Counted from the stretch's first letter, positions 4,635 through 44,238 are shown. The stretch: DNA of 46,111 nucleotides from Phycisphaeraceae bacterium (GCA_009827215.1 WUAJ01000001.1:1-46111); one strand, 5' to 3'. Translations and numbers: made by a program. Notes: generated from the letters alone by a model not told the origin.

Positions 4635-6528
4635 GCGGGATACGGAGCTCGAACTCCGCGCCGTGCCCTCGCTTGCGGACGAGCGACAGGTCACCCCCCA
4701 TCTCGATCGCAAGACCACGCGAGAGCGCCAATCCCAATCCAAGTCCGGAACGATCACGCATGGTTCCTGATGAACCACGCACGAACTCGCCGAAGATTTT
4801 GCGTCGATCGCGCGCCGGGACGCCCGGGCCGTGATCCGCGACGACGAGCAGCAATGAGTCGAATGCGACGGATGCATCGAGGTGCACGCGCAGATCGCGT
4901 TCTTCTTCGCTATCCCCGTCGCTGTTCCCGTCCCCCCCGGCGTATTTACACGCGTTGTCCATCAGGTTCATCACGATGCGTTCCACAGCGTGCGGATCCA
5001 GCGTCATCGTGCGCTCCGCGTCATCAGATGTGGAATCTGAGACGATGAGGTCCATCCCGAACTGCTCACCAAGGCGCGACATCGGCGGGACAATCCGCGC
5101 CATCATCTCTCCGACGCTGAGCGTCTGCTCGCCTTTGGGTTTGTCCTTGATGCCTTTCTGTCGCGAGATGCGCGCGTACTCGAGGACGTTCTCCACGATG
5201 CCTGTCAATCGATCGGACTCGCGTTTGAGAGTGTTCAGGTAGTCCTTGCGGACCGCTTCGTCAGTGACCATCCCGTCCGCGAGCATCTGAGAATACAAAC
5301 GGAACGTCGTCAGCGGCGTTCGGAGTTCGTGTGTCACCGCGCCCACAAAACGACCTCGTCGCGCCGAGAGCGTGAGCACTGTTCGCAGCACGATCCCCAC
5401 CGCGATCATCGCGCCGATGACCGCGATCCAGGTCACCATCATCGCAAAGATCGCGGGCGTGATCGAGTCCCCCTCGACCGCGATCGCTCCGCCGGGATGA
5501 AACGAGACGGGGATGGTTGCGAGGCGATAGCTGCTCGTCGCGGACTTGCTCTGAGGCTGCTCGACACGGATCGGTTGGAGCGTTGATGTCGGGAGCAGGT
5601 CCTCGATCGCGAGAATCAAATCACGCGAGAGCGTGGGCCAATCCAGCAGCACCCCCTGGACGATGTTCCGCCCGTCTTGATTGATCGTTCGTGTGAGGAC
5701 AAGCTCGGTCACGCCGTCGTCTCCGACGACCCAGCGTGGTTCGATCGCTCCGATCGAGACGGATGGAGCCCCTCCCACAATCACTTGATCCATGTCATTC
5801 GCGATGAACGCTTGCGGATCTGCTCGCGCGGCGCTCATTGATTCAATAAGCTCGCTAGATTGCTCGACTTCAGCACGCTCTGGTACGTTGCTCAACTCGT
5901 CGCTCTTGCGCGAGGCGCGTTTGTACTGCGCCAGATCCGCGATCTGCTGACGCGCCAGGTAATCCGCTTCCGATGCTGATTCGCTCTGAAGAACAACTCC
6001 GCTCCCGGCGGGATTTGATACAGCCGGTGTTTCCTCTTTGTTCTCGCGGGATTCGACATCTGCATCTGAATCATTCAAGGCGATGTCGTCGCTGTACCCC
6101 CTGGAGTTCTCCGCGACCTCCACAGCTCGGTCCAGCGTGCCCTTCGCTTGACCGCTCTCGTCGATCTCGAAGTATCCGACGTTGTACGAACCGCTATCGA
6201 TCCCGTTCCGTACGATATCTTGCATTCCCGGATCGTCGTGGCGCGCGTCGCTCGCAAATCCGTCGTCGAGCTTTGGCTGACTCTCTCCGATGAGGACTTT
6301 GTAATCCTGAACGGGACGAGCCGCTTCGAGCGCGATCATCGGTGCTAATCGAGAGTCCATGCGCCACAGCGCGAGTCGGATGACTTCTTGTCGCTGGTTC
6401 TCGGCGCGTGCCGTCGCGTTGCGTTCCTCGAGGATGTAGACTCGTGCACTCGCCCACCCAAGCACGGCGACGATGAGCAGCACCCCCGACCAGAACGCGA
6501 TCCAGAGCTTGTGACGAGCGGGATTCAC
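4627..6528 (-). CDS. Sensor histidine kinase with a large periplasmic domain
   Basis: 633 aa. N-terminal TM, about 340-aa acidic extracytoplasmic region, second TM, H-box VTHELRTPLTT and a HATPase_c region (DNACKYA...GLGLALSRGLA). The GTG start overlaps the response-regulator stop (GTGA). Confidence 0.9.
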   Translation of the reverse strand: MNPARHKLWIAFWSGVLLIVAVLGWASARVYILEERNATARAENQRQEVIRLALWRMDSRLAPMIALEAARPVQDYKVLIGESQPKLDDGFASDARHDDPGMQDIVRNGIDSGSYNVGYFEIDESGQAKGTLDRAVEVAENSRGYSDDIALNDSDADVESRENKEETPAVSNPAGSGVVLQSESASEADYLARQQIADLAQYKRASRKSDELSNVPERAEVEQSSELIESMSAARADPQAFIANDMDQVIVGGAPSVSIGAIEPRWVVGDDGVTELVLTRTINQDGRNIVQGVLLDWPTLSRDLILAIEDLLPTSTLQPIRVEQPQSKSATSSYRLATIPVSFHPGGAIAVEGDSITPAIFAMMVTWIAVIGAMIAVGIVLRTVLTLSARRGRFVGAVTHELRTPLTTFRLYSQMLADGMVTDEAVRKDYLNTLKRESDRLTGIVENVLEYARISRQKGIKDKPKGEQTLSVGEMMARIVPPMSRLGEQFGMDLIVSDSTSDDAERTMTLDPHAVERIVMNLMDNACKYAGGDGNSDGDSEEERDLRVHLDASVAFDSLLLVVADHGPGVPARDRRKIFGEFVRGSSGTMRDRSGLGLGLALSRGLAIEMGGDLSLVRKRGHGAEFELRIPLN

Positions 6529-7235
6529 GAGTCATCCCCATCCGGATCCGCGAGCATGTAGCCCTTGCCTCGCACGGTTTTGATGACCTCGGGATTCGAT
6601 GGATCGTCTCCGAGCGATTCGCGGATGCGCGCGATCGCCATGTCCACCGTTCGAGTGTGCGTCCCGCGCGGATCGACTCCCCAGACTTTCTGCAATAGCT
6701 CGTCGCGCGAGACCGCTCGTCCGGGATTGGACGCAAGGAAACCGATGACCTCCGCCTCGCGTTCGGTGAGCGTCAATCGCGTCCCATCGCTGAGCACGGC
6801 TTCTCGGCGGTCAAAGTCCAGCTGTCGCCCCGCGATGGTGATCTTCTTCCGCTGCGATGGACGAGCGGGAACGCGCCGGAAGACCGCTTCGATCCGCGCG
6901 ATCAGCTCGTCAAGCGAGAACGGCTTGACAATGTAATCGTCCGCGCCGAGCTTGAGTCCTCCGATGCGATCCGTCTCCTCGCCTCGTGCAGTGAGGAATA
7001 TCACAGGGACACCGGGTTTGGGTTTGCGGAGTTCCTTGAGCACCGCGAGCCCGTCCATTTTGGGCATCATGATGTCGAGCAGCACGAGGTCCGCGTCGAC
7101 GCTCAGGCAGAGCTCTAAGCCCTGCTGACCATCGCTTGCTTCGTGGACGGTGTATCCCGAGAACGACAACGCATCGACCAAGCCGCGCCTGATCGAGTCG
7201 TCGTCCTCCACAACCACCAATACACCTTGTGACAT
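6525..7235 (-). CDS. OmpR/PhoB-family DNA-binding response regulator
   Basis: 236 aa. Receiver domain (VVVEDDDSI...LLDIMMPKMDG...TARGE...GADDYIVKPF) plus winged-helix C-terminus (VRGKGYML). AAGGAG lies 6 nt upstream of the ATG. Confidence 0.95.
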   Translation of the reverse strand: MSQGVLVVVEDDDSIRRGLVDALSFSGYTVHEASDGQQGLELCLSVDADLVLLDIMMPKMDGLAVLKELRKPKPGVPVIFLTARGEETDRIGGLKLGADDYIVKPFSLDELIARIEAVFRRVPARPSQRKKITIAGRQLDFDRREAVLSDGTRLTLTEREAEVIGFLASNPGRAVSRDELLQKVWGVDPRGTHTRTVDMAIARIRESLGDDPSNPEVIKTVRGKGYMLADPDGDDS

Positions 7236-7263
7236 GCAATCTCCTTATCGCACTGACGAGAGT

Positions 7264-8778
7264 TTACCATGAATAGCGGACGGTGTAGGTCACGGTCTCT
7301 TCTTCATCGACATCCAGCGACACCGGGATGTGCATCGTGCGCGCATCGAGCATGTCGTAGTTGTGCGAGTGCTTCTGGATGTCTGCGTTGGTCCAGCGGT
7401 AGAGGCGTTCTTGCACCACCACATCGACCGGCTCGTCCTTGCGATTGCGGAGCTTGACCTCGATGGTCTCGACGATCCAGCGTTTCCCACGCTCGAACGA
7501 GACCTGTCGGCGTTCTCCCACGACATCAAAAGCGTTGCCGAGCTTGATCATGATCTCCTCTTCGCGCGGAGTATGGTCGATGACGTGCTCTCCGATGAAC
7601 TCGAATGCGCCGTCCGCTTGGTCTTTCTGATTGACGCGCATGCGCCCCGATGGCATCGGGATCCCGAGCCCGTTGTCCTCGGAGTTCTCGAACTTGAGGT
7701 AGACCTCGACCTTCGAGTTGGATTGGACACCCCAGTTCTGGTCCATCATCGCGGAGTTCCCAAACCACTGTGCTTGCGCCGTCCCGTCGTAGAGCAACAC
7801 CTTCTCAGCCGGGACATCGTTGACGGCTTCGAACAGCTCGATCTGCTTGGTTGAACGATCCGGAATCGTGGTGGGTCGTCCGAGCGTGTAGAGGTGGTAC
7901 TCGAAGAATGATTTCTCCTCGAATCCCGCGGCTCCTGAGTCCTCCATTGCGTTCGCTCGCATGTAGGTCTCGACCTGTCTGAACTGATTCTTCGGCTGAG
8001 CTCGATTCACATCGCCCGCGACCAGTTTCAGTTTCGCGTTCTCGTAGGTCCCTCCCGATTGATTCAGGATCGAGACCCACGCGCCGACATCGACAGTTCC
8101 TGAGTTCGCATCGTCGCCGGGCGTGAAGATGAGGTTGTAATCCGCCCACCAGGTGATCCCGGTGGTCTGGTACGACACGCGTGTGTCATGCTCACCACCA
8201 GTCGCGGCGTTCACCTGCCACATCAGGGTTGGTTTGGTGACCAGCGATTCATCGAGCGATGGGAAGACCACTCCCGCGTACCCCTGCTGGAACTGCACGC
8301 GTCCGTCGTCTCCCTGGAGCAGCATGCCTCCGCCTGCTGTGGACATGAGGGTCATCTCTTGTCCGCCATAGATGATTTTCTGATCGATGTAGCGTTCGAG
8401 CATGCGATCCATCGAGAGCAGATCGAAGCGGTAGTCCTGCTCAAGCACGCTCGTCCCATCTGGATCAGTCAGCGAAGAGAACTGGACCGTCGTCGGATCG
8501 AGCAGCGCCGCGACATCGGTAAAGCTCAGCACGCTGAGTCCTTGATCGATGTCGAGCGTCCGATCCTGACGGATGACCGCGTATCCAGGGATCTGGTTGT
8601 ATCGGTTGTAGCCGTAGCCGTAGGACTGTCCCGGGACTGGTCGGTACCACTCCGCCGGGACCGCGCCAGGGGTCGCGGTGGAGTAGATCGTCAGTGCGGT
8701 GTCATCGGCGAGCGTGGTCTGGAGGATCGCGGTCGATGCGAGCAGTCCGGCGATGTGTGCGATTCGTGTGTTCATCAT
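7264..8778 (-). CDS. DUF4139 domain-containing secreted protein (MuiA-like family)
   Basis: 504 aa with a signal peptide. The core VSYQTTGITWWADYNLIF...VGAWVSILNQSGGTYENAKLKLVAGDVNR matches the DUF4139 signature as I remember it. Confidence 0.75.
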   Translation of the reverse strand: MMNTRIAHIAGLLASTAILQTTLADDTALTIYSTATPGAVPAEWYRPVPGQSYGYGYNRYNQIPGYAVIRQDRTLDIDQGLSVLSFTDVAALLDPTTVQFSSLTDPDGTSVLEQDYRFDLLSMDRMLERYIDQKIIYGGQEMTLMSTAGGGMLLQGDDGRVQFQQGYAGVVFPSLDESLVTKPTLMWQVNAATGGEHDTRVSYQTTGITWWADYNLIFTPGDDANSGTVDVGAWVSILNQSGGTYENAKLKLVAGDVNRAQPKNQFRQVETYMRANAMEDSGAAGFEEKSFFEYHLYTLGRPTTIPDRSTKQIELFEAVNDVPAEKVLLYDGTAQAQWFGNSAMMDQNWGVQSNSKVEVYLKFENSEDNGLGIPMPSGRMRVNQKDQADGAFEFIGEHVIDHTPREEEIMIKLGNAFDVVGERRQVSFERGKRWIVETIEVKLRNRKDEPVDVVVQERLYRWTNADIQKHSHNYDMLDARTMHIPVSLDVDEEETVTYTVRYSW

Positions 8779-8826
8779 GGGCCTTTCGTGGATAATGGCT
8801 TCTCTGTGATCATATACGTATTGGAA

Positions 8827-10050
8827 TCAATCCTCGGACAAGCCGACTTTGTCTTCTTTCGAATCTTCTGTGCCGCTCGTGATCGTGAGCCCGATCGATT
8901 CGCCTTGTTTCTGGAGGGTGATGAGCACCTGCATGTCGAAACTGTCGCCCTTCATCGAGGCGCGGGCCTTGTCCTGATGGTCTCGGCGCAGCTTCGCGAG
9001 TTCCGCGAGTCTGGATTCAATCTTCACACGCTGCTCGTTGTTCTCCGCGATCAGCTTCTTGAGCTCGTCTGTGGTTTTAGACTGGTACTCCTCAGGGAGC
9101 TCGTCCTTCTCCACATCCTCGAGCGCGACGCGTCCATCGACGACATCATCGACGAGTTCTTTGACGCCGTAGAGATTCGATCGTCCCGCCGCGGTCTGGT
9201 TGTAGATCGCGCGATCCGCGGACGCTTCAGGGGCGGCGCTCGATGAAATCTTGATGGCGCGATCACGCTTGGATTCTTGATACAGAACCTCGTCGCGCGA
9301 GCCGTAGTCGATCATGAGCGATGTGAGCTGCTGGTCCAGCTCTGTGATCTCCTGATCGTATGGAGTCGTGATCCGCTGCACACCTGAGTCCTGATCGATC
9401 GCGGCGTATTGCCCGTTGGTCAGTCCCGCGATCTTCGTCCAGTGGTCTTTGGTGCCGTGGAGATTCCCGCACTGGATTGTGTTGACGATGATCCCCTTCT
9501 CTGCCGCAAGCTTGCACGACGCTTGGTACTTCACATCGTCGTCGTACCCCATCTGAGGCGGCGCATCACCCACAAGGAACACGATCTTCAGTGTGCTCGG
9601 ATCATCCGACCAATCGAACCGTTCCACGGCTTCAAACAGCGCCTCGTTCACGCTCTCGGGAGTGTCTCCGCCGCCCCCCGCTTCGAATCCCATCAGTGTT
9701 TCGTACACCGTGTCCAGATCATCCGTCATCGTGGTCTTGGTAGTCACATACTGATCCCCGCGATCGCGATACCCGACGAGTCCCATCCGGATCTCCGGAG
9801 CGGGCTGTGCTTGCGAGATCGTTGATGCGATGGACCAGATCTTTTGTTTCGCGCCTTCGATCAAGCCGCTCATCGAGCCGGTGGTGTCTAGGACGAAAAC
9901 GACCTCGACTTTCTTCTGTTGCTGTTGCGAAACACCCTTGCAACGGACAACAGTGCTTCCTGATGGTCTCGGTGTTCGATCCATCGCGGCGTGTGAGAGT
10001 CCCGCGGCTAGTGCGAGCGTGAGTGCGAGTGCTGTATGAGTGCGTTTCAT
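8827..10050 (-). CDS. Secreted von Willebrand factor A (VWA) domain protein with coiled-coil C-terminus
   Basis: MIDAS motif VFVLDTTGSMS. Signal peptide MKRTHTALALTLALAAGLSHA. Start trimmed from 10101 to the ATG at 10050, which has AAGGAG upstream. Confidence 0.85.
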   Translation of the reverse strand: MKRTHTALALTLALAAGLSHAAMDRTPRPSGSTVVRCKGVSQQQQKKVEVVFVLDTTGSMSGLIEGAKQKIWSIASTISQAQPAPEIRMGLVGYRDRGDQYVTTKTTMTDDLDTVYETLMGFEAGGGGDTPESVNEALFEAVERFDWSDDPSTLKIVFLVGDAPPQMGYDDDVKYQASCKLAAEKGIIVNTIQCGNLHGTKDHWTKIAGLTNGQYAAIDQDSGVQRITTPYDQEITELDQQLTSLMIDYGSRDEVLYQESKRDRAIKISSSAAPEASADRAIYNQTAAGRSNLYGVKELVDDVVDGRVALEDVEKDELPEEYQSKTTDELKKLIAENNEQRVKIESRLAELAKLRRDHQDKARASMKGDSFDMQVLITLQKQGESIGLTITSGTEDSKEDKVGLSED

Positions 10051-10132
10051 CGAATGGTCTCCTTGCGTTGGGGGTGACGGCGTTGTTGCCAACCGTCCCA
10101 CGTCAATAGATACCGTTCGATTGCGTCTTGTA

Positions 10133-10203
10133 TCGTCACAACTGTGTCACACAATCACAGTGTCACACGCGCGTCACAAAGATGTCACAACAGTGTCACG
10201 GCG
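10133..10203 (-). repeat. Array of six GTCAC(A/G) direct repeats (TGTGAC on the operon strand), mostly in 11-bp register
   Basis: GTCACA begins at 10135, 10146, 10162, 10173 and 10184, and GTCACG at 10195. A degenerate ATCACA sits at 10154. The array lies 85-150 bp upstream of the VWA start codon. Confidence 0.8.
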
Positions 10204-10231: not shown

Positions 10232-11620
10232 TTACTCTGAGCTGCGAACGATTAAACCATGCGGCAAGAAAATTGCAACAATCCCTGAGATCGACAGCAA
10301 GACCGCTGTGACTGTGAACGCGGCGTCGAGACCGAACCCATCCATCACGCGCTGTGCGGATGAATCTGGGAGCAGGTTCACCAGATCAATCACAAAGCTC
10401 GGCACATTGGGTTTCGCGTTGAGTCCGTTCTGCACGACCTCCGCACCCATCGGTCCGAGGAACGAGAGCATCCACGCGCCGCCGAGCATTAATCCAGACA
10501 CCAAACTGGTTCGGTGCGGGAGCAATCGCTGCGAGAGCGACAGACTCACCGGGATCGCGGCTCCGAATCCGATCCCGGACAACACCGCTGCACCCATCAC
10601 CATCCATCGACTGATGCTTGGATCTATTGCAGATAGTTGAGGGATCATCGCGATGCTGATCGCCCCGAGCATCGGGAGGATGATGAAGACCGCTTTCTCG
10701 AATCGCGCCGCGAGGATGAATCCGAGCGTGATGCCTCCGCCTCCCATCCCGACCTGCATGGATGCTTGGAGCGTGCCGTTGATCTGCGATGCTTCGATCC
10801 CGAGTTGTTCGGTGAGCTCAACAGCGTTGTGCTTGCTGAGCACGAAGCGTGATGCCCACTCGGTGAACAGATACACCAGCGCCATGTTGGTTGTAAACCT
10901 GAGCACGTTGCTCGCGTAGAGCACCCACACCCCGATCCATCGTTGTCGACGCTCGTGCGCATCCCATCCGACCTGATGCTCGTGCGCGCCGTGATGACGG
11001 TGTCCGGCTTTATGGATCGCAATCGATAGAAACAATGCCGCGAGCAGACCAATCGGGATGAACCAGCGGATCGCGAGCAAGCCCTGCTTTGAGGCCTCTG
11101 TGTTGAGTTTCTCCGGAGTCATCCAGTCCACATACATCGGAGTGAACACATTGCCCACGATCCCCCCCACCATTCCCGCGAGGAAGAAGAGCGCGACATA
11201 CTTCGATCGCTTCGCGCCCCCGAGCTGTCCGACCGTCGCGGCGGCGGGAGGATGGAACGCGCCGACCCCCATCGCGCCGATGCTGTAAAGGATCGCGAGC
11301 TCGGTAAAATCCCGTGCCATCCCGAGATTCCCGATGCACAGCACCGCGATCACAAACCCCGCCGTCCCGAACGCTCGCGAGTCGTAGCGATCGCTCGCCC
11401 ACGCGACGACTGGTTGGATGACTCCGGAGCACACCGATCCCAGCGCCAGCAGGAGCGCCTTCTGCTCCGGACGGATCTCCAGCAGCACCGCGAGCATCGG
11501 GAGCAGCGCGATCCCGATAAACGAGAAGACATCAACGATAAAGTGCGCGCCGATGGTTACCGCGGCGCGGAGAGGCGCTCTGGTCGCGCCCTCTTTGATC
11601 TGCTGCTCGTCTGTACTCAT
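10232..11620 (-). CDS. MFS transporter
   Basis: 462-aa polytopic protein with about 12 predicted TM segments and MFS-like loops. Starts 5 bp after the ggt stop. Confidence 0.85.
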   Translation of the reverse strand: MSTDEQQIKEGATRAPLRAAVTIGAHFIVDVFSFIGIALLPMLAVLLEIRPEQKALLLALGSVCSGVIQPVVAWASDRYDSRAFGTAGFVIAVLCIGNLGMARDFTELAILYSIGAMGVGAFHPPAAATVGQLGGAKRSKYVALFFLAGMVGGIVGNVFTPMYVDWMTPEKLNTEASKQGLLAIRWFIPIGLLAALFLSIAIHKAGHRHHGAHEHQVGWDAHERRQRWIGVWVLYASNVLRFTTNMALVYLFTEWASRFVLSKHNAVELTEQLGIEASQINGTLQASMQVGMGGGGITLGFILAARFEKAVFIILPMLGAISIAMIPQLSAIDPSISRWMVMGAAVLSGIGFGAAIPVSLSLSQRLLPHRTSLVSGLMLGGAWMLSFLGPMGAEVVQNGLNAKPNVPSFVIDLVNLLPDSSAQRVMDGFGLDAAFTVTAVLLSISGIVAIFLPHGLIVRSSE

Positions 11621-11625
11621 GGCGA

Positions 11626-13401
11626 TCAGTCTATCCCGCTCGGACGACCACCCTTGCGTGGATCGCTCGCGGCTTGCCAGCCCTCACCATCACGCACGAT
11701 AATCTGGACATTGCCCACGACCGCGTCCTCACTACCGATGATCTGACCATACCCCCGCAACGGCGTTTTGAACACATTGAGTACAATAGTGTTGAACCCC
11801 GTCTCGAACTGTGTTTGATCAGGGAGCCATTGGTTGTGCAAGCGTGGACGGGATACCGCTTCACCGGCATTCATCCCGCCCATCACATTCAACAAGACTT
11901 GCATTGTCCCTGTGATGATCCGAGGTCCGCCGGACGCTCCGGCTATCGCGAAGACTTTGCCCTCTTCATCGAGCACAATCGTTGGTGACATGCTTGAAAG
12001 CGGGCGTTTGCCCTTCTCAGGGATATTCTGTTCGGACTGGACCAAGCCGAACGCGTTGCCTTTGCCGACTTTGCGTGGGTTGGTAAAGTCGTCCATCTCA
12101 TTGTTGAGACAGAACCCGAACTCCTTAACTCCGACTAGCGATCCAAACTCGAGATTGATTGTTTCGGTCATCGCAACCGCGCCACCGAACTGGTCGATCA
12201 CACTGACATGGCTCGTCCCGCCATCATCTTCGATCGGCGCAGATAGATCATCGTTGAGCTTTGTACCGTAGAAGTCTGGGCTTTGCCCGTGCAGATTCAG
12301 CTTCGACGCGAGATCTTGGATGTTGTCTTCATCAAGAAGCTGTTCAATCGGTACCTCAGTGAACATCGGATCCGCGAGGTAACGCGATCGATCTGCGAAC
12401 GCGTGCTTGAGTGATTCAATCAGCATCGCAACGCTGTCGGCATCCCGCTTAGCGCTTTGGAAGTTGTACCCCATTGCTTCCATAATCTCCAACGCTTCGA
12501 ACATCGTGACTCCCCCGCTGGATGGGGGAGGCATCCCGATTAGTCGCTTGCCGTTGATTACTGTCTCGATCGGTTTCATCTCGATCGGTTCGTATCCCGC
12601 GAGATCCTCGAGCGTAATTGGGATCGGAGTGCGTTTGGTGATCGGCTCAACCGTCAGCGTGTCCACGATTGCTTGACCGATCGCGCCCGTAGTAAATGCT
12701 TCCAAGCCGTGTTGTGCGATTAGTTCCAATGCTCGCGCGTGCTCTGGATTTCGGATCCGATCGCCGAGCTTCACCTGTCCCCAAAGCGTGAACTTCTTCC
12801 AAGGCATTCCCATCTCTGAGTCACGCAGCGCCGGGTTCTTGTGATAACGCTCGATGATTCCCTCAGCAGCATTCATGTAATGCTCATCAACGACGAACCC
12901 CTCCATCGCCGCGTCGATTGCGGGTTGCAAAACCGTCGCACGATCAAGCGTCCCGTACTCCTCTAATGCGTGGAGCAATCCAGCGACCGTCCCTGGGACC
13001 GCGACCGCGTAGCGTCCGTTCTTCATCGAATATCCGGATCGGTACCGACCCGCGTCCGCTGGAGAAGTCTCGCGATAGTTAATGGTCGTCAGCACACGCC
13101 CGTGCGTGGGATCGTTGGGGAGGTAGATGACCATGAACCCCCCACCTCCGATCCCGCACGAATAGGGACGCACCACAGAGAGTGCAAACGAAGCGGCGAC
13201 CGCGGCGTCCACCGCATTCCCGCCTTGTGCGAGCATCTGAGCGCCAGCCGCAGAAGCATCCGGATGATCCGCGGCAACCGCGGCTTTCGCGAATGTATCA
13301 AAGAACAGGTCCGCATCACGAACCGGAGCACTGGCGCACGCACTGCTGCAGAGCACACAGACTAGGACAAGAGCGCCTCGAAGCAAGATGATTGTATTCA
13401 T
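11626..13401 (-). CDS. ggt: Gamma-glutamyltransferase (secreted)
   Basis: 591 aa with a signal peptide. Autoprocessing/nucleophile region DDGGTSHVSVID, and C-terminal GASGGPRIITG, typical of GGT. Confidence 0.92.
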   Translation of the reverse strand: MNTIILLRGALVLVCVLCSSACASAPVRDADLFFDTFAKAAVAADHPDASAAGAQMLAQGGNAVDAAVAASFALSVVRPYSCGIGGGGFMVIYLPNDPTHGRVLTTINYRETSPADAGRYRSGYSMKNGRYAVAVPGTVAGLLHALEEYGTLDRATVLQPAIDAAMEGFVVDEHYMNAAEGIIERYHKNPALRDSEMGMPWKKFTLWGQVKLGDRIRNPEHARALELIAQHGLEAFTTGAIGQAIVDTLTVEPITKRTPIPITLEDLAGYEPIEMKPIETVINGKRLIGMPPPSSGGVTMFEALEIMEAMGYNFQSAKRDADSVAMLIESLKHAFADRSRYLADPMFTEVPIEQLLDEDNIQDLASKLNLHGQSPDFYGTKLNDDLSAPIEDDGGTSHVSVIDQFGGAVAMTETINLEFGSLVGVKEFGFCLNNEMDDFTNPRKVGKGNAFGLVQSEQNIPEKGKRPLSSMSPTIVLDEEGKVFAIAGASGGPRIITGTMQVLLNVMGGMNAGEAVSRPRLHNQWLPDQTQFETGFNTIVLNVFKTPLRGYGQIIGSEDAVVGNVQIIVRDGEGWQAASDPRKGGRPSGID

Positions 13402-13429
13402 GTGTCAACTATACGCGGCACAGATCCAA

Positions 13430-14773
13430 TTACCGATCGAGCTTGCGCCTTCGGACGATCCAGAAGCGATGATCCTCCGGATCAGGTCCCTTGCCGTCCT
13501 TGCCTCGTATGGGACCTCGGAACAGTGCTTTAAAAAATGCCTTCGTGCCGTTGACGACACGCATGATCCCTGTGCCACCCTCTCGTCCATCATGACGCTC
13601 GAGTCGATACCCAAACAGATGGAACACCTGCCTACGGAGCACGCACGCGAGATCCGCATCCACAAGCAGCGAAGAATCTTCACTGTGATACACCCCCGGC
13701 ATGATCCCAATCAGCTTGTGGACCCACCCCACACTACGGAGCCATGCTGAGAGATTCACCCAACCGCTGCTGACCCTGCGAACGATGAAGAACCCGTCAT
13801 CATTGATCCGCTTGTGTGTTTGCATGTTTGGAAGAAAGATCCGCCCGTGAATCGGGGAGTACACAGGTTTCCCAGCTTGCATCGCGATCTTCGTCTTTCG
13901 AGCGTGTACAGGAGTCCCCGCCTCGACGCCGGCACAGATCCTGAAGTCTTCGCTAGTGATCGGTTCACGATGGCGCACATCGTACACCACATGACCACGA
14001 TCCTGGGACTTCGATCGCATGTACGCGAAGTGGTCCTTTGGATGTCTTGAGAGTTCCACAACACCCGCCGTATCCAGCGCGATCCAGATCGCGGCTTCGT
14101 GCACATCGATCGACGCGGGATCATCGTGCTGCCCTCCCTCGACAAGATACGAGATGCATCCGAGCCGAGCGGTGACTGCATCGATCACCAAGCCGTTGGT
14201 TTCTTCTTCGATCCCCAGATACTTCGGACAAGGCATACGCATCGCGTGCACACGCGCCGGCAGCGAATCCTCGAACGCGACTACTGGCTTTGAAGGCGCA
14301 CTCGTTGTATGCAGATCGAGCACGATCATCTGCTGACCCGCCTGCTTGCACGATGCATGGATCGATTCGAGTGATCCAAACAACTCAAACATCTGCTCAT
14401 GCTCAGCGCTTGTTGAAGCGGGTTCACTAAAATGCTCGCGCTTGCACAAACGATTGAGATCATGATCGATGTAGCGTGTCTCGGGATCCTCGTGATTCAA
14501 TGCCGCGAGGTTCCCGGCGAGCACAATGAGTCGTCCACTGATATGCGCGTAGCGATCGGAGTGGAGTTGATCGAGCACGCGTTGTCCCGCGATGAGTCCC
14601 GCGCGCTCGTTCCCATGAACCCCGCCGAGCACGACAAGGGTCGTCCCCATGCTCGCATCACCCGCTCGACCGATCTCCCGCTCTGGGTATCGCTGAACGG
14701 CTGGGCTTGATTGCTCTGTTTGGACTTCGGTCATCGGCACGCACACACTCCGCGGGACTGAGCCAGTACTCAA
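13430..14773 (-). CDS. Succinylglutamate desuccinylase/aspartoacylase (AstE/AspA) family Zn hydrolase with C-terminal extension
   Basis: 447 aa. Zn-binding motif VVLGGVHGNERAG, then LIVLAGNLAAL and DLNR. About 120 extra C-terminal residues have no call. Start uncertain: TTG at 14773 or ATG at 14734. Confidence 0.75.
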   Translation of the reverse strand: MSTGSVPRSVCVPMTEVQTEQSSPAVQRYPEREIGRAGDASMGTTLVVLGGVHGNERAGLIAGQRVLDQLHSDRYAHISGRLIVLAGNLAALNHEDPETRYIDHDLNRLCKREHFSEPASTSAEHEQMFELFGSLESIHASCKQAGQQMIVLDLHTTSAPSKPVVAFEDSLPARVHAMRMPCPKYLGIEEETNGLVIDAVTARLGCISYLVEGGQHDDPASIDVHEAAIWIALDTAGVVELSRHPKDHFAYMRSKSQDRGHVVYDVRHREPITSEDFRICAGVEAGTPVHARKTKIAMQAGKPVYSPIHGRIFLPNMQTHKRINDDGFFIVRRVSSGWVNLSAWLRSVGWVHKLIGIMPGVYHSEDSSLLVDADLACVLRRQVFHLFGYRLERHDGREGGTGIMRVVNGTKAFFKALFRGPIRGKDGKGPDPEDHRFWIVRRRKLDR

Positions 14774-14783
14774 AATTCAAGGC

Positions 14784-16715
14784 TCACTCTGTATCATTGC
14801 CGCCGCGAAGCTGATCTTCGAGCAACTTCCCTGCAATCCGCATGTAATCGTGCTCAGTGACGATCCCCACGAGCTTGCCGTTCTCCAAGACCACTGGGAG
14901 ACACGAGGCGCGATGCTGCTTCATCAACGCAATTGCGTCGAGCGTCGGAGTCTCCGGCTGGACAGAGACCGGCTTGCGCTCCATGATGTCCTCGACCGCG
15001 ATCGAGTCGCTCTTGCGCTTCACAGGATCAGCGACCAAACGCAGTAATGCTCGATAGCTGACCAATCCGACCAGTTTGTGTTCGTCGTCTTCGACTGGGA
15101 TGTGGCGGATCTGCTCCCAATCCATGATCGAGGCCGCGAGATCAATCAGCTCGTCTTGCCGAACCGTAAAGAGGTCAGTCTGCATGTACTGACCCACAGT
15201 GGTGTAGTGGTGTCTCCATTCGCCGCATTCACGGATCTCCGCGACGCTCCATTCATGCACCGGCGTCCCGATCTGCTGCCTGGATATTGTGCCGGCAGTC
15301 AGCGTGCTCAATCGCTCAGCGCGTGTCCCTTTCTCATGGATGTGCGCGACCGAATCAATCATCCAGCGAGCGCCGTTGCGTCCCGTTTCCGTCCGCTCGG
15401 AGATGATGTCCATGTACTTGTTGATGTCCTGGTGATCGACCTGTGCCTCGCGGAGCCCTTCAATCGCAATCGGAACCAGCTCTCCCAGGATTAGATCACG
15501 AGTCGGGATGACTCTTCCATCGATCCAGCGAGATTTGTAGTCCAATCCTGATCGTGCTGCTGAGACGAAGTTCGCTTGCGCGTCGGCGAATGCCAGCCGT
15601 TCTGTTAGATCAGGATACAGCTTCGGCATGCGAGTCATCAAACCAAACCAGAACGCAGCGTTGGCAATCTCGTCAACAATTGTTGGTCCAGCAGGAAGCA
15701 CACGATTCTCGATACGCAGGTGAGGCTTGCCATCGGTAATCCCATAGCACTGACGGTTCCAGCGATAGAGCGTGCTGTTGTATGTTTGCAATGCCGAGAG
15801 TTTGGGGATCTCACCTCGCTGGACCATCGCAAGCGAGTCCTGCGTTGCATCCGCACGGAACATATTTCGGAATCGTGCGATATCTGCTTTGAACAACTCA
15901 ACAACGGATTCTTTGACCCACGATTCACCGAATCGCACACGCTTGAGCATGTCCCGCTGCGTAGGGATGTCCTGTCCGGATGTATCTACGGTCTGCTCGA
16001 AAACCGCGATGCGAGTCTCGTGCCAGAGTCGTTTGCCAAAGAGGACCGCGGAGTTTGCGGCGGCTGCCATCACCGGCGCGGTCACCGCTTGCGCGACATT
16101 GTACGAGATCGCAAAGTCCTCAGGAGTCACCTGAAAATGGAGTTGAAACGAAGTATTGAGCGCCTCGAGCATCACTGAATCGTGCGAGAAGTTGATCTCG
16201 TCGATCCCTTTGATTCGGATGTCGTAGCGTCCACCTCGCGCTTTGGTGATCCGCTCATCGAGCGCGTAGTACCTCGGCTTGGGAGTGATGTAGTCCTTGG
16301 ACAGATGCTGCTGCTGGAGCGTCGGGACGATCCCGATAAGGATCGGTTTCGCACCGAGCTTCTGCGAGACATCCTGCGCCTTGGTCATCAGCTCTTCGAG
16401 TTCTTTGTGCAGATCACGCAAGACCGATCCAGTGAAGACCTTCGGATCGCAGTTGAACTCCATGTTGAAGCGACCGATCTCTGTGGTCGCGCGGCGCTCA
16501 TGGAGCAGGTCGATGACCTCTGGACCCAATGGCGCTGGACGCATCGCATCATCGACGAACGCGAGCTCTTGCTCAGCGCCGATTCTGGTAATGCCTGTTT
16601 CGAACATGCCGTGTTCGATCATGTACTCAAACGCACGCAGGTCGTTGAGGACATCGTGCATAGCTGCGCGATGCTCATGTCCCCCACTCGCTTGGTCCAT
16701 TTCTTGAATGCCCAT
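14784..16715 (-). CDS. GCS2-family carboxylate-amine (glutamate-cysteine-type) ligase fused to a C-terminal CBS pair
   Basis: 643 aa. N-terminal about 470 aa resemble the YbdK/GCS2 family (RIGAEQELAFVD...). The C-terminus has two CBS motifs (VGQYMQTDLFTV...LVGLVSYRALL and VEDIMERKPVSV...LVGIVTEHDYM). Confidence 0.8.
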   Translation of the reverse strand: MGIQEMDQASGGHEHRAAMHDVLNDLRAFEYMIEHGMFETGITRIGAEQELAFVDDAMRPAPLGPEVIDLLHERRATTEIGRFNMEFNCDPKVFTGSVLRDLHKELEELMTKAQDVSQKLGAKPILIGIVPTLQQQHLSKDYITPKPRYYALDERITKARGGRYDIRIKGIDEINFSHDSVMLEALNTSFQLHFQVTPEDFAISYNVAQAVTAPVMAAAANSAVLFGKRLWHETRIAVFEQTVDTSGQDIPTQRDMLKRVRFGESWVKESVVELFKADIARFRNMFRADATQDSLAMVQRGEIPKLSALQTYNSTLYRWNRQCYGITDGKPHLRIENRVLPAGPTIVDEIANAAFWFGLMTRMPKLYPDLTERLAFADAQANFVSAARSGLDYKSRWIDGRVIPTRDLILGELVPIAIEGLREAQVDHQDINKYMDIISERTETGRNGARWMIDSVAHIHEKGTRAERLSTLTAGTISRQQIGTPVHEWSVAEIRECGEWRHHYTTVGQYMQTDLFTVRQDELIDLAASIMDWEQIRHIPVEDDEHKLVGLVSYRALLRLVADPVKRKSDSIAVEDIMERKPVSVQPETPTLDAIALMKQHRASCLPVVLENGKLVGIVTEHDYMRIAGKLLEDQLRGGNDTE

Positions 16716-16751: not shown

Positions 16752-17071
16752 CGTTTACGACGCCAGAACCGCGTCGATGATCTCCGATTGTGACAAGTTT
16801 GGGCTCAAAACGCAACCATTGACTCCCTTGAACATCCGCTTTGGCAACCAAACTCCTCTCGATTGCGTACCTTTAAAGACACGAGCACGCCTTTGCTGGA
16901 TCACGATCCAACCAGTTCTCGGACTTTCTGTCCACTCGCTCGTGTTGCTGTTGACCACTCTTGGTACTCTTGCTCGGCATCCACGAACTCACCTCGATTG
17001 ATCGCCGACAAGGACCACACCACTCTCTGTGCTCGATTCTGGAGTCCAGAGCAACCCAATCTGGAGAAGAG

Positions 17072-19480
17072 ATGCCCATGCCGCACCTCCCAACTATCTG
17101 CCGTGTATCCACAGCTCTGCTCGTCGCGTCGCTCGCGATGATCCCCTCCCACACGCTCGCTCAGAACCAGCAGGTTGAACGCATCGATCTGCTCACACAT
17201 CCGATCCCGATGGCGTATGAGGGGCAGATGGTCGTCTCGGTACGGATCACCTCAGAAAGCCAACTCGCAGCAGCACTCGATCTCGCGGTCTCATCGTGGT
17301 CAGAGCGTCCTGGACTCGGGAAGGTCGATCTGCAGATCAACGCGGATCAGTTCGACGAGCTTGTCAAACTCGGAGTCAATCCGATCGTCGAGATCGCGGA
17401 CCTCCAGACACACAACCAGAACCGATGGGAAACGCTCGTCCAGCAAGAGCAGCTCGATATCATCAATCAGAGCGGTGCGTTCAAACCTCAGGGACAGATC
17501 CAACGCGGCGCCTCGACACATGACGAGAGCTGGTTCACAAACTACAAACAGCTCGCGGACATCTACGCGTACATGGACACCCAACTCGCTGCTCATCCTG
17601 ACATGATCTCCAAGATGGACTTCGGAGACACCTACGAATCCCGCGACATGTTCGCGTACACGATCACGGCACCGGACGAGCCTGGGAACTTGGGAGTCGA
17701 TCGTCCCATCATCATCTGGAACGGTGGACAGCACGCACGCGAGTGGGTCAGTCCGATGACCGTCACATACATCGCATCCAAACTCATCGATGACGCATCC
17801 AGCGACCCTGTGGTTGCACAACTGCTCAGTGATGTCCGCTTTGTCATCATCCCTGTCCTGAATCCAGACGGCTATCTGTACTCATGGTCGTCTGAACGAT
17901 TCTGGAGAAAGAACCGACGCGATAACGCCGGAAGCTCGTTCGACGGCGTAGACCTCAATCGAAACTGGGATGTCGCGTTTGGAGGAGACGGCACATCAAC
18001 AGATCCATCATCAGATATCTACCACGGCACCGCGGCGTTCTCTGAACCTGAAACCGCCGCGCTCAGAGATCTCGCGCTGAGCTTTGGTGATGATCTCGTC
18101 GCGCACATCGACTATCACACCTACTCCCAGCTCATCCTCTGGCCATTGGGATACGAGCTCGGTCTGGTCACTCCAGAACCCGATCGCTCATTCTTCCAGT
18201 CCCTCTCTGGAGACATGTCGGACCTGATCCAGTCGTACTCCGGAGCGTTCTACGATCCGATCCAGTCTTGGCAGTTGTACGCCGCGGCGGGAACCTGCTC
18301 GGACTGGTTCTACGACGGCGCGGGTGTGCCGAGCTTTACCGTTGAGCTTCGTCCCGAAGCCGGCGCCGGATTCGGCGGTTTCGATCCATCCCCTGATGTG
18401 ATTCTTCCCACTGCTCAGGAAAACTGGGAAGCCGCCAAACTCTTTGCACAGCGCACGACTCAAGAAATCTTGCTCTCGCATGAGACTATAGAAATCGTCA
18501 ATGCCAATACACCAACTCCGGTCACATTGACATCTGCGCCGAGCCTCAGTGATGTCGATCCGAGCATGGTCTCGTTGTATGCACGCGTAGGGAACACAGG
18601 ACCCTTCACGCAATCACCAATGACGGGCATCGGTTCTTCACAGTTCAGCGGCTTACTCCCAGGCGCAGCGTGCGGACAGATGATCGAGTACTACTTCAGC
18701 GCGGTCTCACTCTCAGGGATCACAGTCGAGTACCCTGCTGGAGGCGCGTCCTCAGCATTGTCTGTGCTCTCGCAAGAGATCACCATCGCGTTCGAGGACG
18801 ACATGGAATCGAGCACTGGATGGATCGTCGGACAAGCATCCGACTCCGCAACCACCGGCATTTGGGAACGCGCTGATCCGCAGTCCACTGCTGCTCAGCC
18901 TGAGGACGATCACACGCCTGGATCGGGAACGCTCTGCTGGATCACCGATGGTGCTTCTGGAGGATCACTCGGCGCCAATGACATCGACGGCGGCGCAACC
19001 ACGCTGACCTCCCCACTGCTTGATGCGAGCGGACTCCCTGATGGCGCTGAGCTCATTTACTGGCGCTGGTACTCCAACGACACTGGCGCATCCCCAAACG
19101 AGGACTCCATGCTTGTCCAGATCTCAACCAACGATGGTGGATCATGGAGCACACTCGAGACAGTCACTGAGAACGCGGGCATCTGGGTCGAAAAACGATT
19201 CCCGGCTCCGGATTCGGATCAGATCCGCGTCCGATTCATCGCGTCGGATCTTGGAAGTGGATCGATCGTCGAAGCCGGCGTGGATGATCTGCGGATCGAA
19301 GCTTTGGGATGCAGCGAAACCTCCGCGGATATCAACGGCGACGGCAGTCTGAACTTCCTCGATGTTTCCCAGTTCCTGAGCTTGTTTGGAGTCCAAGATC
19401 CGATCGCGGACTTCAACAACGACGGGCAATGGAATTTCCTGGATGTCTCCGCTTTTCTTGCCGCGTTCGCGGCGGGTTGA
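17072..19480 (+). CDS. Secreted M14 zinc carboxypeptidase with C-terminal GC-type dockerin-like tail
   Basis: HxxE zinc motif GGQHAREWVS, then NRNWD and HTYSQLILWP. Tail LGCSETSADINGDGSLNFLDVSQF...DFNNDGQWNFLDVSAFLAAFAAG. Start trimmed to the ATG at 17072 (GGAG upstream, signal peptide follows). Confidence 0.88.
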   Translation: MPMPHLPTICRVSTALLVASLAMIPSHTLAQNQQVERIDLLTHPIPMAYEGQMVVSVRITSESQLAAALDLAVSSWSERPGLGKVDLQINADQFDELVKLGVNPIVEIADLQTHNQNRWETLVQQEQLDIINQSGAFKPQGQIQRGASTHDESWFTNYKQLADIYAYMDTQLAAHPDMISKMDFGDTYESRDMFAYTITAPDEPGNLGVDRPIIIWNGGQHAREWVSPMTVTYIASKLIDDASSDPVVAQLLSDVRFVIIPVLNPDGYLYSWSSERFWRKNRRDNAGSSFDGVDLNRNWDVAFGGDGTSTDPSSDIYHGTAAFSEPETAALRDLALSFGDDLVAHIDYHTYSQLILWPLGYELGLVTPEPDRSFFQSLSGDMSDLIQSYSGAFYDPIQSWQLYAAAGTCSDWFYDGAGVPSFTVELRPEAGAGFGGFDPSPDVILPTAQENWEAAKLFAQRTTQEILLSHETIEIVNANTPTPVTLTSAPSLSDVDPSMVSLYARVGNTGPFTQSPMTGIGSSQFSGLLPGAACGQMIEYYFSAVSLSGITVEYPAGGASSALSVLSQEITIAFEDDMESSTGWIVGQASDSATTGIWERADPQSTAAQPEDDHTPGSGTLCWITDGASGGSLGANDIDGGATTLTSPLLDASGLPDGAELIYWRWYSNDTGASPNEDSMLVQISTNDGGSWSTLETVTENAGIWVEKRFPAPDSDQIRVRFIASDLGSGSIVEAGVDDLRIEALGCSETSADINGDGSLNFLDVSQFLSLFGVQDPIADFNNDGQWNFLDVSAFLAAFAAG

Positions 19481-26766: not shown

Positions 26767-26837
26767 AGGGGATTGGTGTAACGGTAGCACGAAGGTTTCT
26801 GATACCTTTAGTCAGAGTTCGAATCTCTGATCCCCTA
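26767..26837 (+). tRNA. tRNA-Gln (anticodon CTG)
   Basis: Hand-folded cloverleaf. Acceptor AGGGGAT/ATCCCCT. D stem GTGT/GCAC. Anticodon stem AAGGT/ACCTT with loop TTCTGAT. T arm CAGAG-TTCGAAT-CTCTG. Discriminator A. CCA is not encoded. Confidence 0.9.
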
Positions 26838-43443: not shown

Positions 43444-43494
43444 TCTGCTCGATTGTGGTGTTTGCCCAATCCCACGCTGTATCGGAGATCACAC

Positions 43495-44238
43495 ATGGCA
43501 CGCATCCTCGTTGTTGGACCCCACCCTGATGATCAAGAACTGGGGATGGGTGGCACCGTCATCAAGCTCATGAATCAGGGACACGATGTCCTGATCCTCG
43601 ACGTGACCAACGGCGAGCCCACGCCGCTTGGATCACCTGAGATCCGCAAGCAAGAAGCCGCGGACGCATTCAAGGTGTTGTCACGGAACGCAACCGGCGA
43701 GGTCGATCGTTGGCTGCTCGATCTCCCCAACCGATTTGTCGAGCACACGATCGAGAATCGACACGCGCTCGCTGGAGTCATCCGAGCTTGGCAAGCGGAG
43801 ATGATCTTTACGACGTTTGACATCGATGCGCATCCCGATCACCGAGCCGTAACTCGTTGTGTTGAGGATGCACGCTTTGACGCGAAGCTCAGCAAGATCG
43901 AGATGCCCAAACCCACTGATGCGTGGACGGGACGGACCTTCGAGCTTGGTGATCCCTTGTATCCCAAGTGGTTGTTCTACTACTACGCGACGCACCTGCG
44001 CTGGGTCGCGGATCCGAGCTTTGTGTTCGATATCTCCGGAGTCGTCGAGCAGAAGCTCGAATCCATCCGCGCGTACCACACGCAGTTCGTGCTCCCCCCC
44101 AAGAACGCACGCATCGCGGAATGGATCGAGCACGCGGCGAGCTACTTCGGATCACGCATCGGAACCGAAGCGGGTGAGCCGTTCTTCACGAAGGAACCGG
44201 TTGGATTGGGTGATCTTGCTTCGCTAGTGAATGTCTGA
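43495..44238 (+). CDS. PIG-L/LmbE family deacetylase (BshB/MshB-like)
   Basis: MARILVVGPHPDDQELGMGGT...DVTNGE...HPDH motifs of LmbE-type N-acetylglucosaminyl deacetylases. GGAG lies upstream of the ATG at 43495. Confidence 0.85.
   Translation: MARILVVGPHPDDQELGMGGTVIKLMNQGHDVLILDVTNGEPTPLGSPEIRKQEAADAFKVLSRNATGEVDRWLLDLPNRFVEHTIENRHALAGVIRAWQAEMIFTTFDIDAHPDHRAVTRCVEDARFDAKLSKIEMPKPTDAWTGRTFELGDPLYPKWLFYYYATHLRWVADPSFVFDISGVVEQKLESIRAYHTQFVLPPKNARIAEWIEHAASYFGSRIGTEAGEPFFTKEPVGLGDLASLVNV

Follow-up and report, generated by a model that had tools for sequence, protein, structure and literature searches.

A 46,111-nucleotide stretch of DNA from a Phycisphaeraceae bacterium (GCA_009827215.1, WUAJ01000001.1:1-46111; hereafter the window) encodes a predicted carboxylate-amine ligase with a C-terminal pair of CBS motifs (LIG) and, next to it, a predicted zinc amidohydrolase of the AstE/AspA type (AST). 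Several described systems resemble this pair in part. AstE, aspartoacylase, DoeB (EutE) and CphZ deacylate amino acids at the alpha-amine; the AstE substrate carries an omega-carboxy-acyl group on that amine, the same topology as gamma-Glu-X. Within the AstE family, CphZ is an isopeptide dipeptidase that is clustered with the synthetase making the bond it cleaves (PMC9974463). On the ligase side stand the glutamate-cysteine ligases (GCLs) of the GCS2 superfamily, represented by plant-type GCL, yeast GCL and E. coli YbdK; the GhExE signature marks carboxylate-amine ligases, with "usually the gamma-carboxylate of glutamate" as the group activated (PMC2588565). An ATP-dependent amide-forming ligase and an amidase share one polypeptide or unit, as in LIG and AST, in glutathionylspermidine synthetase-amidase (GspSA) and trypanothione synthetase-amidase (TryS). 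The latter is bifunctional, with conflicting synthetic and hydrolytic activities (PMC2427367), and in both enzymes such conflicting activities regulate a small thiol conjugate (PMC2427367, PMC2784880). Iyer et al. (2008) described carboxylate-amine ligase families in which a GCS2-sized ligase lies beside an enzyme that cleaves gamma-glutamyl-type bonds, a theme like that of LIG and AST; the sections of that paper considered here name GAT-like thiol peptidases or AIG2 cyclotransferases as the partners, and mention neither CBS domains nor an AstE partner. As in the Meister cycle or glutathione salvage based on gamma-glutamyltransferase (GGT), the window also encodes together a GCL-like ligase, a secreted GGT and a membrane transporter.

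LIG has the fold and approximate ligase domain size (~490 aa) of the GCLs and keeps their GhExE, NxE, QxHxQ and RxExR-type metal/phosphate motifs intact, but it differs from them in its CBS pair, in its dedicated and sometimes fused AstE-type partner, and in sequence. AST shares its fold, zinc ligands and catalytic residues with AstE, aspartoacylase, DoeB and CphZ, yet stands apart as a subfamily: its identity to solved members is 14-18%, and it has a LPLYQxxGxDGFF motif of its own and a C-terminal extension of ~110 aa. The likeness to GspSA and TryS is best taken as a functional analogy rather than membership: the domains are unrelated, ATP-grasp and CHAP there, and a glutamine synthetase (GS)/GCL fold with an M14-like zinc hydrolase here. 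Unlike a Meister cycle, the window ORFs (open reading frames) scanned include only the GGT and the GCL-like ligase, with no gamma-glutamyl cyclotransferase, 5-oxoprolinase or glutathione synthetase, and a GGT and transporter of the window type are dispensable in relatives.

An initial annotation of this DNA had read four tightly spaced minus-strand genes, encoding LIG, AST, a GGT and a transporter of the major facilitator superfamily (MFS), as one dedicated unit. Our finding is narrower and firmer than that four-gene proposal: a cross-phylum ligase-amidase unit, with a CBS gate in this branch. Comparative sequence data indicate that LIG and AST are a genuine functional unit, conserved across many bacterial phyla and sometimes fused into a single polypeptide. 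The features of the pair are as follows.

14784-16715, minus strand: LIG, a 643-aa predicted ATP-dependent carboxylate-amine ligase of GCL/GS fold with a CBS pair (Pfam, AlphaFold2/Foldseek, invariant motifs)
15234-16715, minus strand: ligase domain of LIG, aa 1-494
14808-15218, minus strand: CBS pair of LIG, about aa 500-636
13430-14734, minus strand: AST, a 434-aa predicted cytoplasmic AstE/AspA-type zinc amidohydrolase (Pfam, AlphaFold2/Foldseek); alternative TTG start at 14773

The ligase and the amidase

Pfam recognises the two CBS motifs at the C-terminus of LIG with an E-value of 3e-27. Against the Pfam GCS2 profile, LIG scores 18.4 bits, under the gathering threshold of 21, and the score differs among its homologues (37.8 for P0365, 19.3 for P0403), several of which lie above the cut-off. 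We therefore file LIG at the superfamily level only, as a divergent branch of the carboxylate-amine ligases. Structure prediction was needed because searches of PDB sequences with the ligase domain, both as a single sequence and as a profile, gave CBS matches or noise only. An AlphaFold2 model built from 57 homologues, with a predicted local distance difference test (pLDDT) score of 84.6, matched yeast GCL 3ig5, plant GCL 2gwc and YbdK 1r8g over its N-terminal ~490 residues (Foldseek, E 7e-12 to 4e-10); with 1tt4 as a fourth match, the probability was 1.00 throughout and E ranged from 7e-12 to 4e-9. The C-terminal part of the model matched AcuB, CBSX2 and MJ0100, which are nucleotide-binding CBS pairs.

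The Mg/ATP-binding GhExE signature of core strand 1 is present in LIG as G46-A-E48-Q-E50 and is invariant in 57/57 sequences; N84-x-E86, Q191-x-H193-x-Q195 and R334-I-E336-N-R338 are further invariant motifs. The GCS2 assignment made in the initial annotation, which the Pfam score did not sustain, is thus rescued by the fold match, the invariant GhExE and the homologues that exceed the Pfam cut-off. In the CBS pair, the second motif keeps the ribose-binding Asp of G-h-h-T-x-x-D (D623, in 54 of the 57 sequences) and the first lacks it; this canonical residue suggests a nucleotide ligand.

The most conserved stretch of the ligase, residues 224-256 (about 15948-16046), is also the sole long segment of low confidence in the model (pLDDT 42-51). 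N221, L225, F226, R229, L230, W231, E233, R235, I236, F239 and Q241 are invariant. This stretch probably acts as a flexible lid for substrate binding, comparable to the switch loops in known GCLs. Two relatives of LIG carry additional domains: P0365 (786 aa) has a third CBS motif, and in P0369 (800 aa) the CBS pair is followed by a HIT domain (histidine-triad nucleotide hydrolase), a fusion that hints at a link to adenylylated or dinucleoside-polyphosphate ligands.

AST matches Pfam AstE_AspA_cat (E 7e-17; 62 bits against a cut-off of 25), and its AlphaFold2 model (pLDDT 92.6) matches AstE (1yw6, 1yw4), DoeB (6twm), aspartoacylase (2o4h) and CphZ (8eip) over ~315 aa by Foldseek. The Zn ligands H40, E43 and H142, the catalytic Glu E199, and R87, N94 and R95 are all invariant. 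Across phyla, orthologues have the zinc ligands and catalytic Glu in common, together with the LPLYQxxGxDGFF motif and the conserved C-terminal extension. Assignment of AST as an AstE or aspartoacylase orthologue was rejected, with scores far under the NCBIfam cut-offs (47.8 against 180 for NF002601, 35.8 against 306 for TIGR03242). The AST ORF as called opens on TTG; because homologues are ~434 aa long and align from an internal Met, translation probably starts at the ATG at 14734, which would place AST 49 bp from LIG instead of 10.

Pairing and fusion across bacterial phyla

Scanning a LIG alignment against one genome per GTDB species confirmed at least 558 relatives among the first 600 pattern matches. 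We compared the neighbourhoods of the best 80 of these at least 558 loci (LIG identity 46-66%), finding neighbours mainly by tblastn with the window proteins and calling genes in this GC-rich DNA by a codon-position GC score. These 80 loci represent Phycisphaerae, other Planctomycetota, Gemmatimonadota, Acidobacteriota, Myxococcota, Wenzhouxiangellaceae, Lysobacterales, Rhodothermales, KSB1, Calditrichia, Eisenbacteria and Krumholzibacteriia. Downstream sequence was sufficient in 68 loci, and in 33 of these AST is the next gene after LIG, including 16 of 19 in Planctomycetota, 11 of 12 in Gemmatimonadota, and some in Acidobacteriota, Myxococcota and Eisenbacteria. It adjoins LIG in none of the gammaproteobacterial, Thermoanaerobaculia-labelled or Rhodothermales loci of this set. 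Approached from the amidase, the association was uniform: all seven look-ups anchored on AST, in Phycisphaerae, other Planctomycetota and metagenome contigs, placed a gene with GCS2 and CBS domains immediately upstream on the same strand. Stop and start codons of the two genes overlap in four loci (L111, L115, L118 and L121).

A phmmer search with LIG against 1.84 billion cluster representatives identified 665 clusters (50% identity) at E<=1e-30. Most of these relatives are ~620-650 aa long and include the CBS pair; a sister clade of ~470-506 aa lacks it. GCS2, CBS and AstE_AspA domains are joined in one polypeptide in P0390 and P0403, and GCS2-like and AstE_AspA domains are joined without CBS in P0466, P0468, P0485 and P0492, so that ligase and amidase are fused in at least six independent proteins. 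On its contig, the P0390 fusion is one unbroken ORF closed by a genuine TGA stop. Homology of the fused AstE part to AST spans AST residues 19-324. Four of the fusions have an AstE part that can be aligned to AST; these end near AST residue 320, without the ~110-aa extension, which suggests that the extension docks free-standing AST onto LIG.

The CBS-less sister clade also pairs its ligase with AstE, as in P0472, where the AstE gene overlaps the ligase stop codon. In every case sampled, AST adjoins or is fused to a GCL-fold ligase. Pairing and fusion, including those of the CBS-less clade, therefore mark LIG-AST as an old functional unit; the CBS pair would be a later regulatory addition in one clade. 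A census with Pfam took in 172 neighbours other than AST, 87 of them downstream and 85 upstream, from the loci other than the seven closest Phycisphaerae loci (L001-L007); no family occurred in more than four loci, and by this census there is no further universal partner beyond AST.

Optional neighbours and putative regulatory elements

Around the pair, the window has the following further features.

11626-13401, minus strand: GGT, a 591-aa predicted secreted (possibly lipoprotein) gamma-glutamyltransferase (Pfam, TIGR00066, PDB matches)
10232-11620, minus strand: MFS transporter, 462 aa (Pfam MFS_1)
17069-19480, plus strand: divergent M14A carboxypeptidase with a C-terminal GC-type dockerin, predicted secreted (Pfam, NCBIfam)
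16787-16815, minus strand: candidate promoter of the block (invariant in comparison with five relatives; below consensus-scan thresholds)

The four minus-strand ORFs were called at 14784-16715 (643 aa), 13430-14773 (447 aa, TTG), 11626-13401 (591 aa) and 10232-11620 (462 aa). Their gaps as called are the 10, 28 and 5 bp on which the initial annotation relied, of which the first is probably too small, as described above. The divergent M14 ORF was called at 16961-19480; its start probably lies near 17069, where MPMPHL is followed by a signal peptide. GGT is unambiguous by profile (Pfam G_glu_transpept, E 5e-135; TIGR00066, 390 bits against a cut-off of 358) and, among solved structures, E. coli GGT 2e0w is nearest to it (E 1e-89). 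Solved GGT small subunits align from residue 396, the Thr in GGTSHVS, at the position of the autoprocessing/catalytic Thr. By inspection, the N-terminus has a hydrophobic signal sequence with a Cys, MNTIILLRGALVLVCVLCSSAC. The transporter matches Pfam MFS_1 (E 2e-18) and no PDB sequence. M14 matches Peptidase_M14 (E 1e-70) and NCBIfam dockerin_GC (35 bits, cut-off 29), and its closest solved structures are CPA4, CPA2 and CPT (E 4e-55), making it an M14A enzyme of digestive type. Profile searches of Pfam and NCBIfam thus bear out the CBS, AstE_AspA, G_glu_transpept, MFS_1 and M14 domain calls of the initial annotation. Its suggestion of poly-gamma-glutamate salvage fares worse: GGT is closest to the E. 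coli enzyme, and such a system is unlikely, with no pgsBCA/capBCA, CapD-type GGT or PghP-type hydrolase among the window ORFs scanned.

The order M14|LIG-AST-GGT-MFS (the bar marking divergence) was found again in ~25 related Phycisphaerae loci, to ~50% protein identity, which argues that the arrangement is more than chance. Among the best 80 LIG-anchored loci, GGT and MFS downstream of LIG and M14 divergent from it occur only in Phycisphaerae (tblastn). An MFS-anchored metagenome scan gave 27 Phycisphaerae loci, ~21 of them informative: 11 have the full LIG-AST-GGT-MFS set, including L105 at 46-51% identity, and ~10 lack one or more members. L091 retains LIG-AST-MFS with a 32-aa GGT remnant (6857-6952) between intact AST and MFS, which is direct evidence of GGT loss in some lineages. 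Other loci have M14|GGT-MFS (L092, L094), M14|MFS with nothing between (L089, L093, L095), or M14 and MFS ~2 kb apart without LIG, AST or GGT (L106). MFS is followed by DUF4139, with the other members absent, in L098, L099 and L107 (the last with VWA too), and an MFS-VWA-DUF4139 set is present in L097, where the upstream sequence is just 1.9 kb. LIG-AST stands without GGT or MFS in L001 and L110, and LIG-GGT-MFS without AST in L004. AST and GGT overlap by 4 bp in L111. A GGT also follows LIG in a separate lineage (L052), whose ligase groups with the Thermoanaerobaculia-labelled loci on a tree built by the unweighted pair group method with arithmetic mean (UPGMA).

We read the locus as a mosaic of independently gained or lost cassettes on a conserved M14...MFS-VWA-DUF4139 backbone. 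By the same comparisons, MFS is part of this local synteny backbone and not of the LIG-AST unit, and GGT a lineage-specific accessory gene. Conservation of the neighbourhood therefore holds for LIG-AST across phyla, and for GGT, MFS and M14 only within Phycisphaerae. The proposal of one dedicated four-gene unit does not survive this comparison: only LIG-AST is conserved outside Phycisphaerae, every sub-combination occurs among close relatives and, given the independent gain or loss of GGT, MFS and M14, a four-part cycle is not an obligate system. Nor does the idea of M14 as a peptide-trimming front end, behind which lay local synteny alone; the digestive-type enzyme stays when LIG is absent.

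About 70 nt upstream of the LIG start codon, the minus strand carries TTGCGT (16815-16810), a 17-nt spacer and the sequence TGTCACAAT (TGT-CACAAT, with the -10 element at 16792-16787). In an alignment with five relatives this block is invariant and the flanking DNA has diverged; because it falls under the thresholds of our consensus promoter scan, it is a candidate only. Terminator-like sites within the four-gene block were not above chance in a consensus scan, and Rfam found no riboswitch in the window. The tiny gaps, the codon overlap in L111, the conserved promoter-like element and the lack of excess terminators make co-transcription of the four genes plausible.

Further conserved or repeated elements were noted nearby. 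In the LIG-M14 intergenic region, a block at 16915-16935, GTGGACAGAA(A/G)GTCCGAGAAC, contains the inverted repeat GGAC-N5-GTCC and is nearly invariant in five relatives, with diverging surroundings; the divergent M14 and LIG promoters may share it as an operator. The intergenic stretch that separates the end of MFS (stop at 10232) from the beginning of the VWA gene (10101) carries, on the minus strand, six or seven copies of GTGAC(A/G) (10133-10199), mostly 11 bp apart, or about one helical turn. Exact GTGACA occurs four times in 55 bp (10145-10199), against 20 times in the whole 46-kb window. The repeats, which precede the VWA/DUF4139 genes, resemble an array of binding sites for a regulator, perhaps the OmpR-type response regulator encoded at 6525-7235. 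The VWA (or VIT-VWA), DUF4139, response regulator and histidine kinase genes (6525-10101), compared in the relatives L081, L102 and L111, are linked to MFS more stably than are LIG, AST and GGT; the window VWA_4 protein is 424 aa long, against 766 aa for the VIT-VWA protein of the Tara relative L081. A tRNA gene at 26767-26837 (plus strand) is the sole Rfam match in the window.

Possible functions of the pair

We tentatively favour a reading in which LIG makes and AST hydrolyses a gamma-glutamyl amide under CBS control, with AST docked onto or fused to the ligase. LIG would be ATP- and Mg-dependent, activating the gamma-carboxylate of Glu and coupling it to an amine carried by an amino acid or a comparable small molecule, and the CBS pair would tune this activity on an adenosine-containing ligand, via CBS2. 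AST, coupled to LIG through its C-terminal extension or covalently in the fused lineages, would hydrolyse the same omega-amide bond, and the pair would set the level of a small gamma-glutamyl compound. In the marine Phycisphaerales lineage, the pair would be co-transcribed with a periplasmic GGT and the MFS transporter as optional add-ons that extend turnover to the periplasm. The gamma-glutamyl theme of the initial annotation is to this extent reasonable.

For the compound, our leading guess is a thiol dipeptide of the gamma-Glu-Cys type. Those members of the ligase superfamily that have been characterised all act on the gamma-carboxylate of glutamate (PMC2588565). The GGT neighbours, and an OPT oligopeptide transporter directly downstream of LIG in two Acidobacteriota loci (L038 and L055), would fit a small gamma-glutamyl peptide. 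There are two further hints of a gamma-glutamyl peptide or thiol. In one Planctomycetota clade (L113, L114 and L116) a divergent MarR gene and a convergent ArsC-family gene flank the pair, with GST_C_2 in L114, and PntB lies upstream of LIG in four loci, of which the gene-called ones (L017, L027 and L041) carry Thermoanaerobaculia-type ligases.

Several observations weigh against make-and-break of one gamma-glutamyl bond, or against a thiol as the product. About half of the LIG genes in the 68 loci have no adjacent AST, and AST-positive and AST-negative ligases are intermixed on the UPGMA tree built from identities, so LIG has a function that does not need an adjacent AST. Two cultured carriers, Wenzhouxiangella limi C33 and Salinivenus iranica CB7, have LIG with no AST beside it. 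Identity of LIG to characterised GCLs is 12-14%, a similarity at the level of fold only, and hence we can only infer Glu and Cys as substrates. The redox-flavoured neighbours are each limited to one clade, and in L118 the same-strand genes ahead of the pair encode a P-type cation ATPase and a Na+/H+ exchanger; a gamma-Glu-Cys-type thiol is therefore a guess and not a finding. No glutathione synthetase was seen in any LIG/AST neighbourhood examined. Literature searches for the gene combination found no characterised member or published description, in line with the earlier statement that no described pathway combines the four genes. Finally, the window encodes a PIG-L/LmbE-family de-N-acetylase at 43453-44238 (plus strand; Pfam E 1e-22), ~27 kb from the cluster. 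This family, which includes the BshB (bacillithiol) and MshB (mycothiol) deacetylases, could signal a different thiol pathway in this organism.

Fusion of ligase and amidase is equally compatible with two sequential steps, and the main rival, though rather unlikely, builds on this: AST would deacylate a precursor, unmasking an amine or carboxylate for LIG, or trim the LIG product at another bond, the pair thereby building a novel metabolite. Fusion and translational coupling are typical of consecutive steps and substrate channelling, make-and-break on one polypeptide would be a futile cycle unless regulated, and the CBS-less fusions have no obvious regulatory domain. In mycothiol synthesis the MshB deacetylase acts before the MshC ligase, which is a parallel and not a test. 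Yet the half of LIG genes without an adjacent AST would need their substrate from elsewhere, the ligase always comes first in gene order, and no candidate N-acylating enzyme recurs in the neighbourhoods censused. We judge it unlikely, though possible within Phycisphaerae, that all four genes serve one gamma-glutamyl cycle of cytoplasmic synthesis, MFS export and periplasmic GGT, with M14 giving acceptor amino acids. Such a cycle would accord with the retention of the M14|LIG-AST-GGT-MFS order to ~50% LIG identity (L006, L105, L111), the 4-bp AST/GGT overlap in L111, the independent LIG-GGT adjacency in L052 and the OPT transporter after LIG in Acidobacteriota. It is harder to reconcile with the ~10 of 21 informative MFS-anchored loci that are incomplete (M14|MFS alone, GGT-MFS alone or a decayed GGT), with the lack of both GGT and MFS beside LIG-AST in L001, in L110 and in all other phyla, with the generic nature of the M14A enzyme, and with the lack of a cyclotransferase, oxoprolinase or glutathione synthetase among the window ORFs scanned.

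Two other readings are less likely than these or than the one we favour. The AstE-family enzyme DoeB acts in ectoine breakdown, and CBS pairs sense ionic strength in OpuA-type transporters; the product might accordingly be a gamma-glutamyl compatible solute, with synthesis switched on by high ionic strength at the CBS pair and breakdown by AST following an osmotic down-shift. A marine or halophilic habit is shared by many carriers (Tara Oceans metagenome-assembled genomes, Wenzhouxiangella, Salinivenus, and a metagenome-assembled genome from salar soil), DoeB/EutE is a close structural match of AST, and the ion-transport genes before the pair in L118 would suit such a role. We nevertheless consider it improbable: the family is also common in Acidobacteriota and Gemmatimonadota of soil, freshwater and groundwater, AST is absent beside LIG in the halophilic carriers from Gammaproteobacteria and Rhodothermales, and the ribose-binding Asp of CBS2 suggests a nucleotide ligand. 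Most improbable of all is protein or peptide tagging, in which LIG would join a protein or peptide carboxylate to an amine in the manner of PafA, and AST would reverse the modification, in the role that Dop or the M14 tubulin deglutamylases play. PafA, a GS-fold Pup ligase, is derived from GCS2-like ligases (PMC2588565), and the M14D deglutamylase CCP5 is among the weaker structural matches of the AST model; against this, AST is closest to small-molecule amidohydrolases rather than to protein-acting M14 enzymes, and no conserved small ORF or target gene lies beside the pair in any neighbourhood.

Returning to LIG and AST as maker and breaker of one gamma-glutamyl bond, a bolder statement can be framed, which we regard as doubtful: that the pair is a previously unrecognised enzyme system spread over many phyla (the 665 clusters), a third, CBS-gated class of gamma-glutamyl ligase with a physically coupled zinc amidase, which structurally reinvents the trypanothione synthetase-amidase principle. 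In Planctomycetota, Gemmatimonadota and Acidobacteriota it would both make and regulate either the low-molecular-weight thiol or some new gamma-glutamyl metabolite.

The window also provides a caution: judged by their close spacing in a single genome, the four genes seemed more of a functional unit than they are. Fusion and synteny together narrow a vague four-gene cluster to a testable unit of one ligase, one amidase and one regulatory CBS module. This ligase-amidase pair is large and strongly conserved (~50% identity across phyla), and it is found in poorly studied, environmentally abundant phyla. LIG-AST could exemplify a second, independently evolved synthetase-amidase control circuit, and its product, once identified, could prove to be the redox buffer of these phyla or a gamma-glutamyl metabolite not described before.

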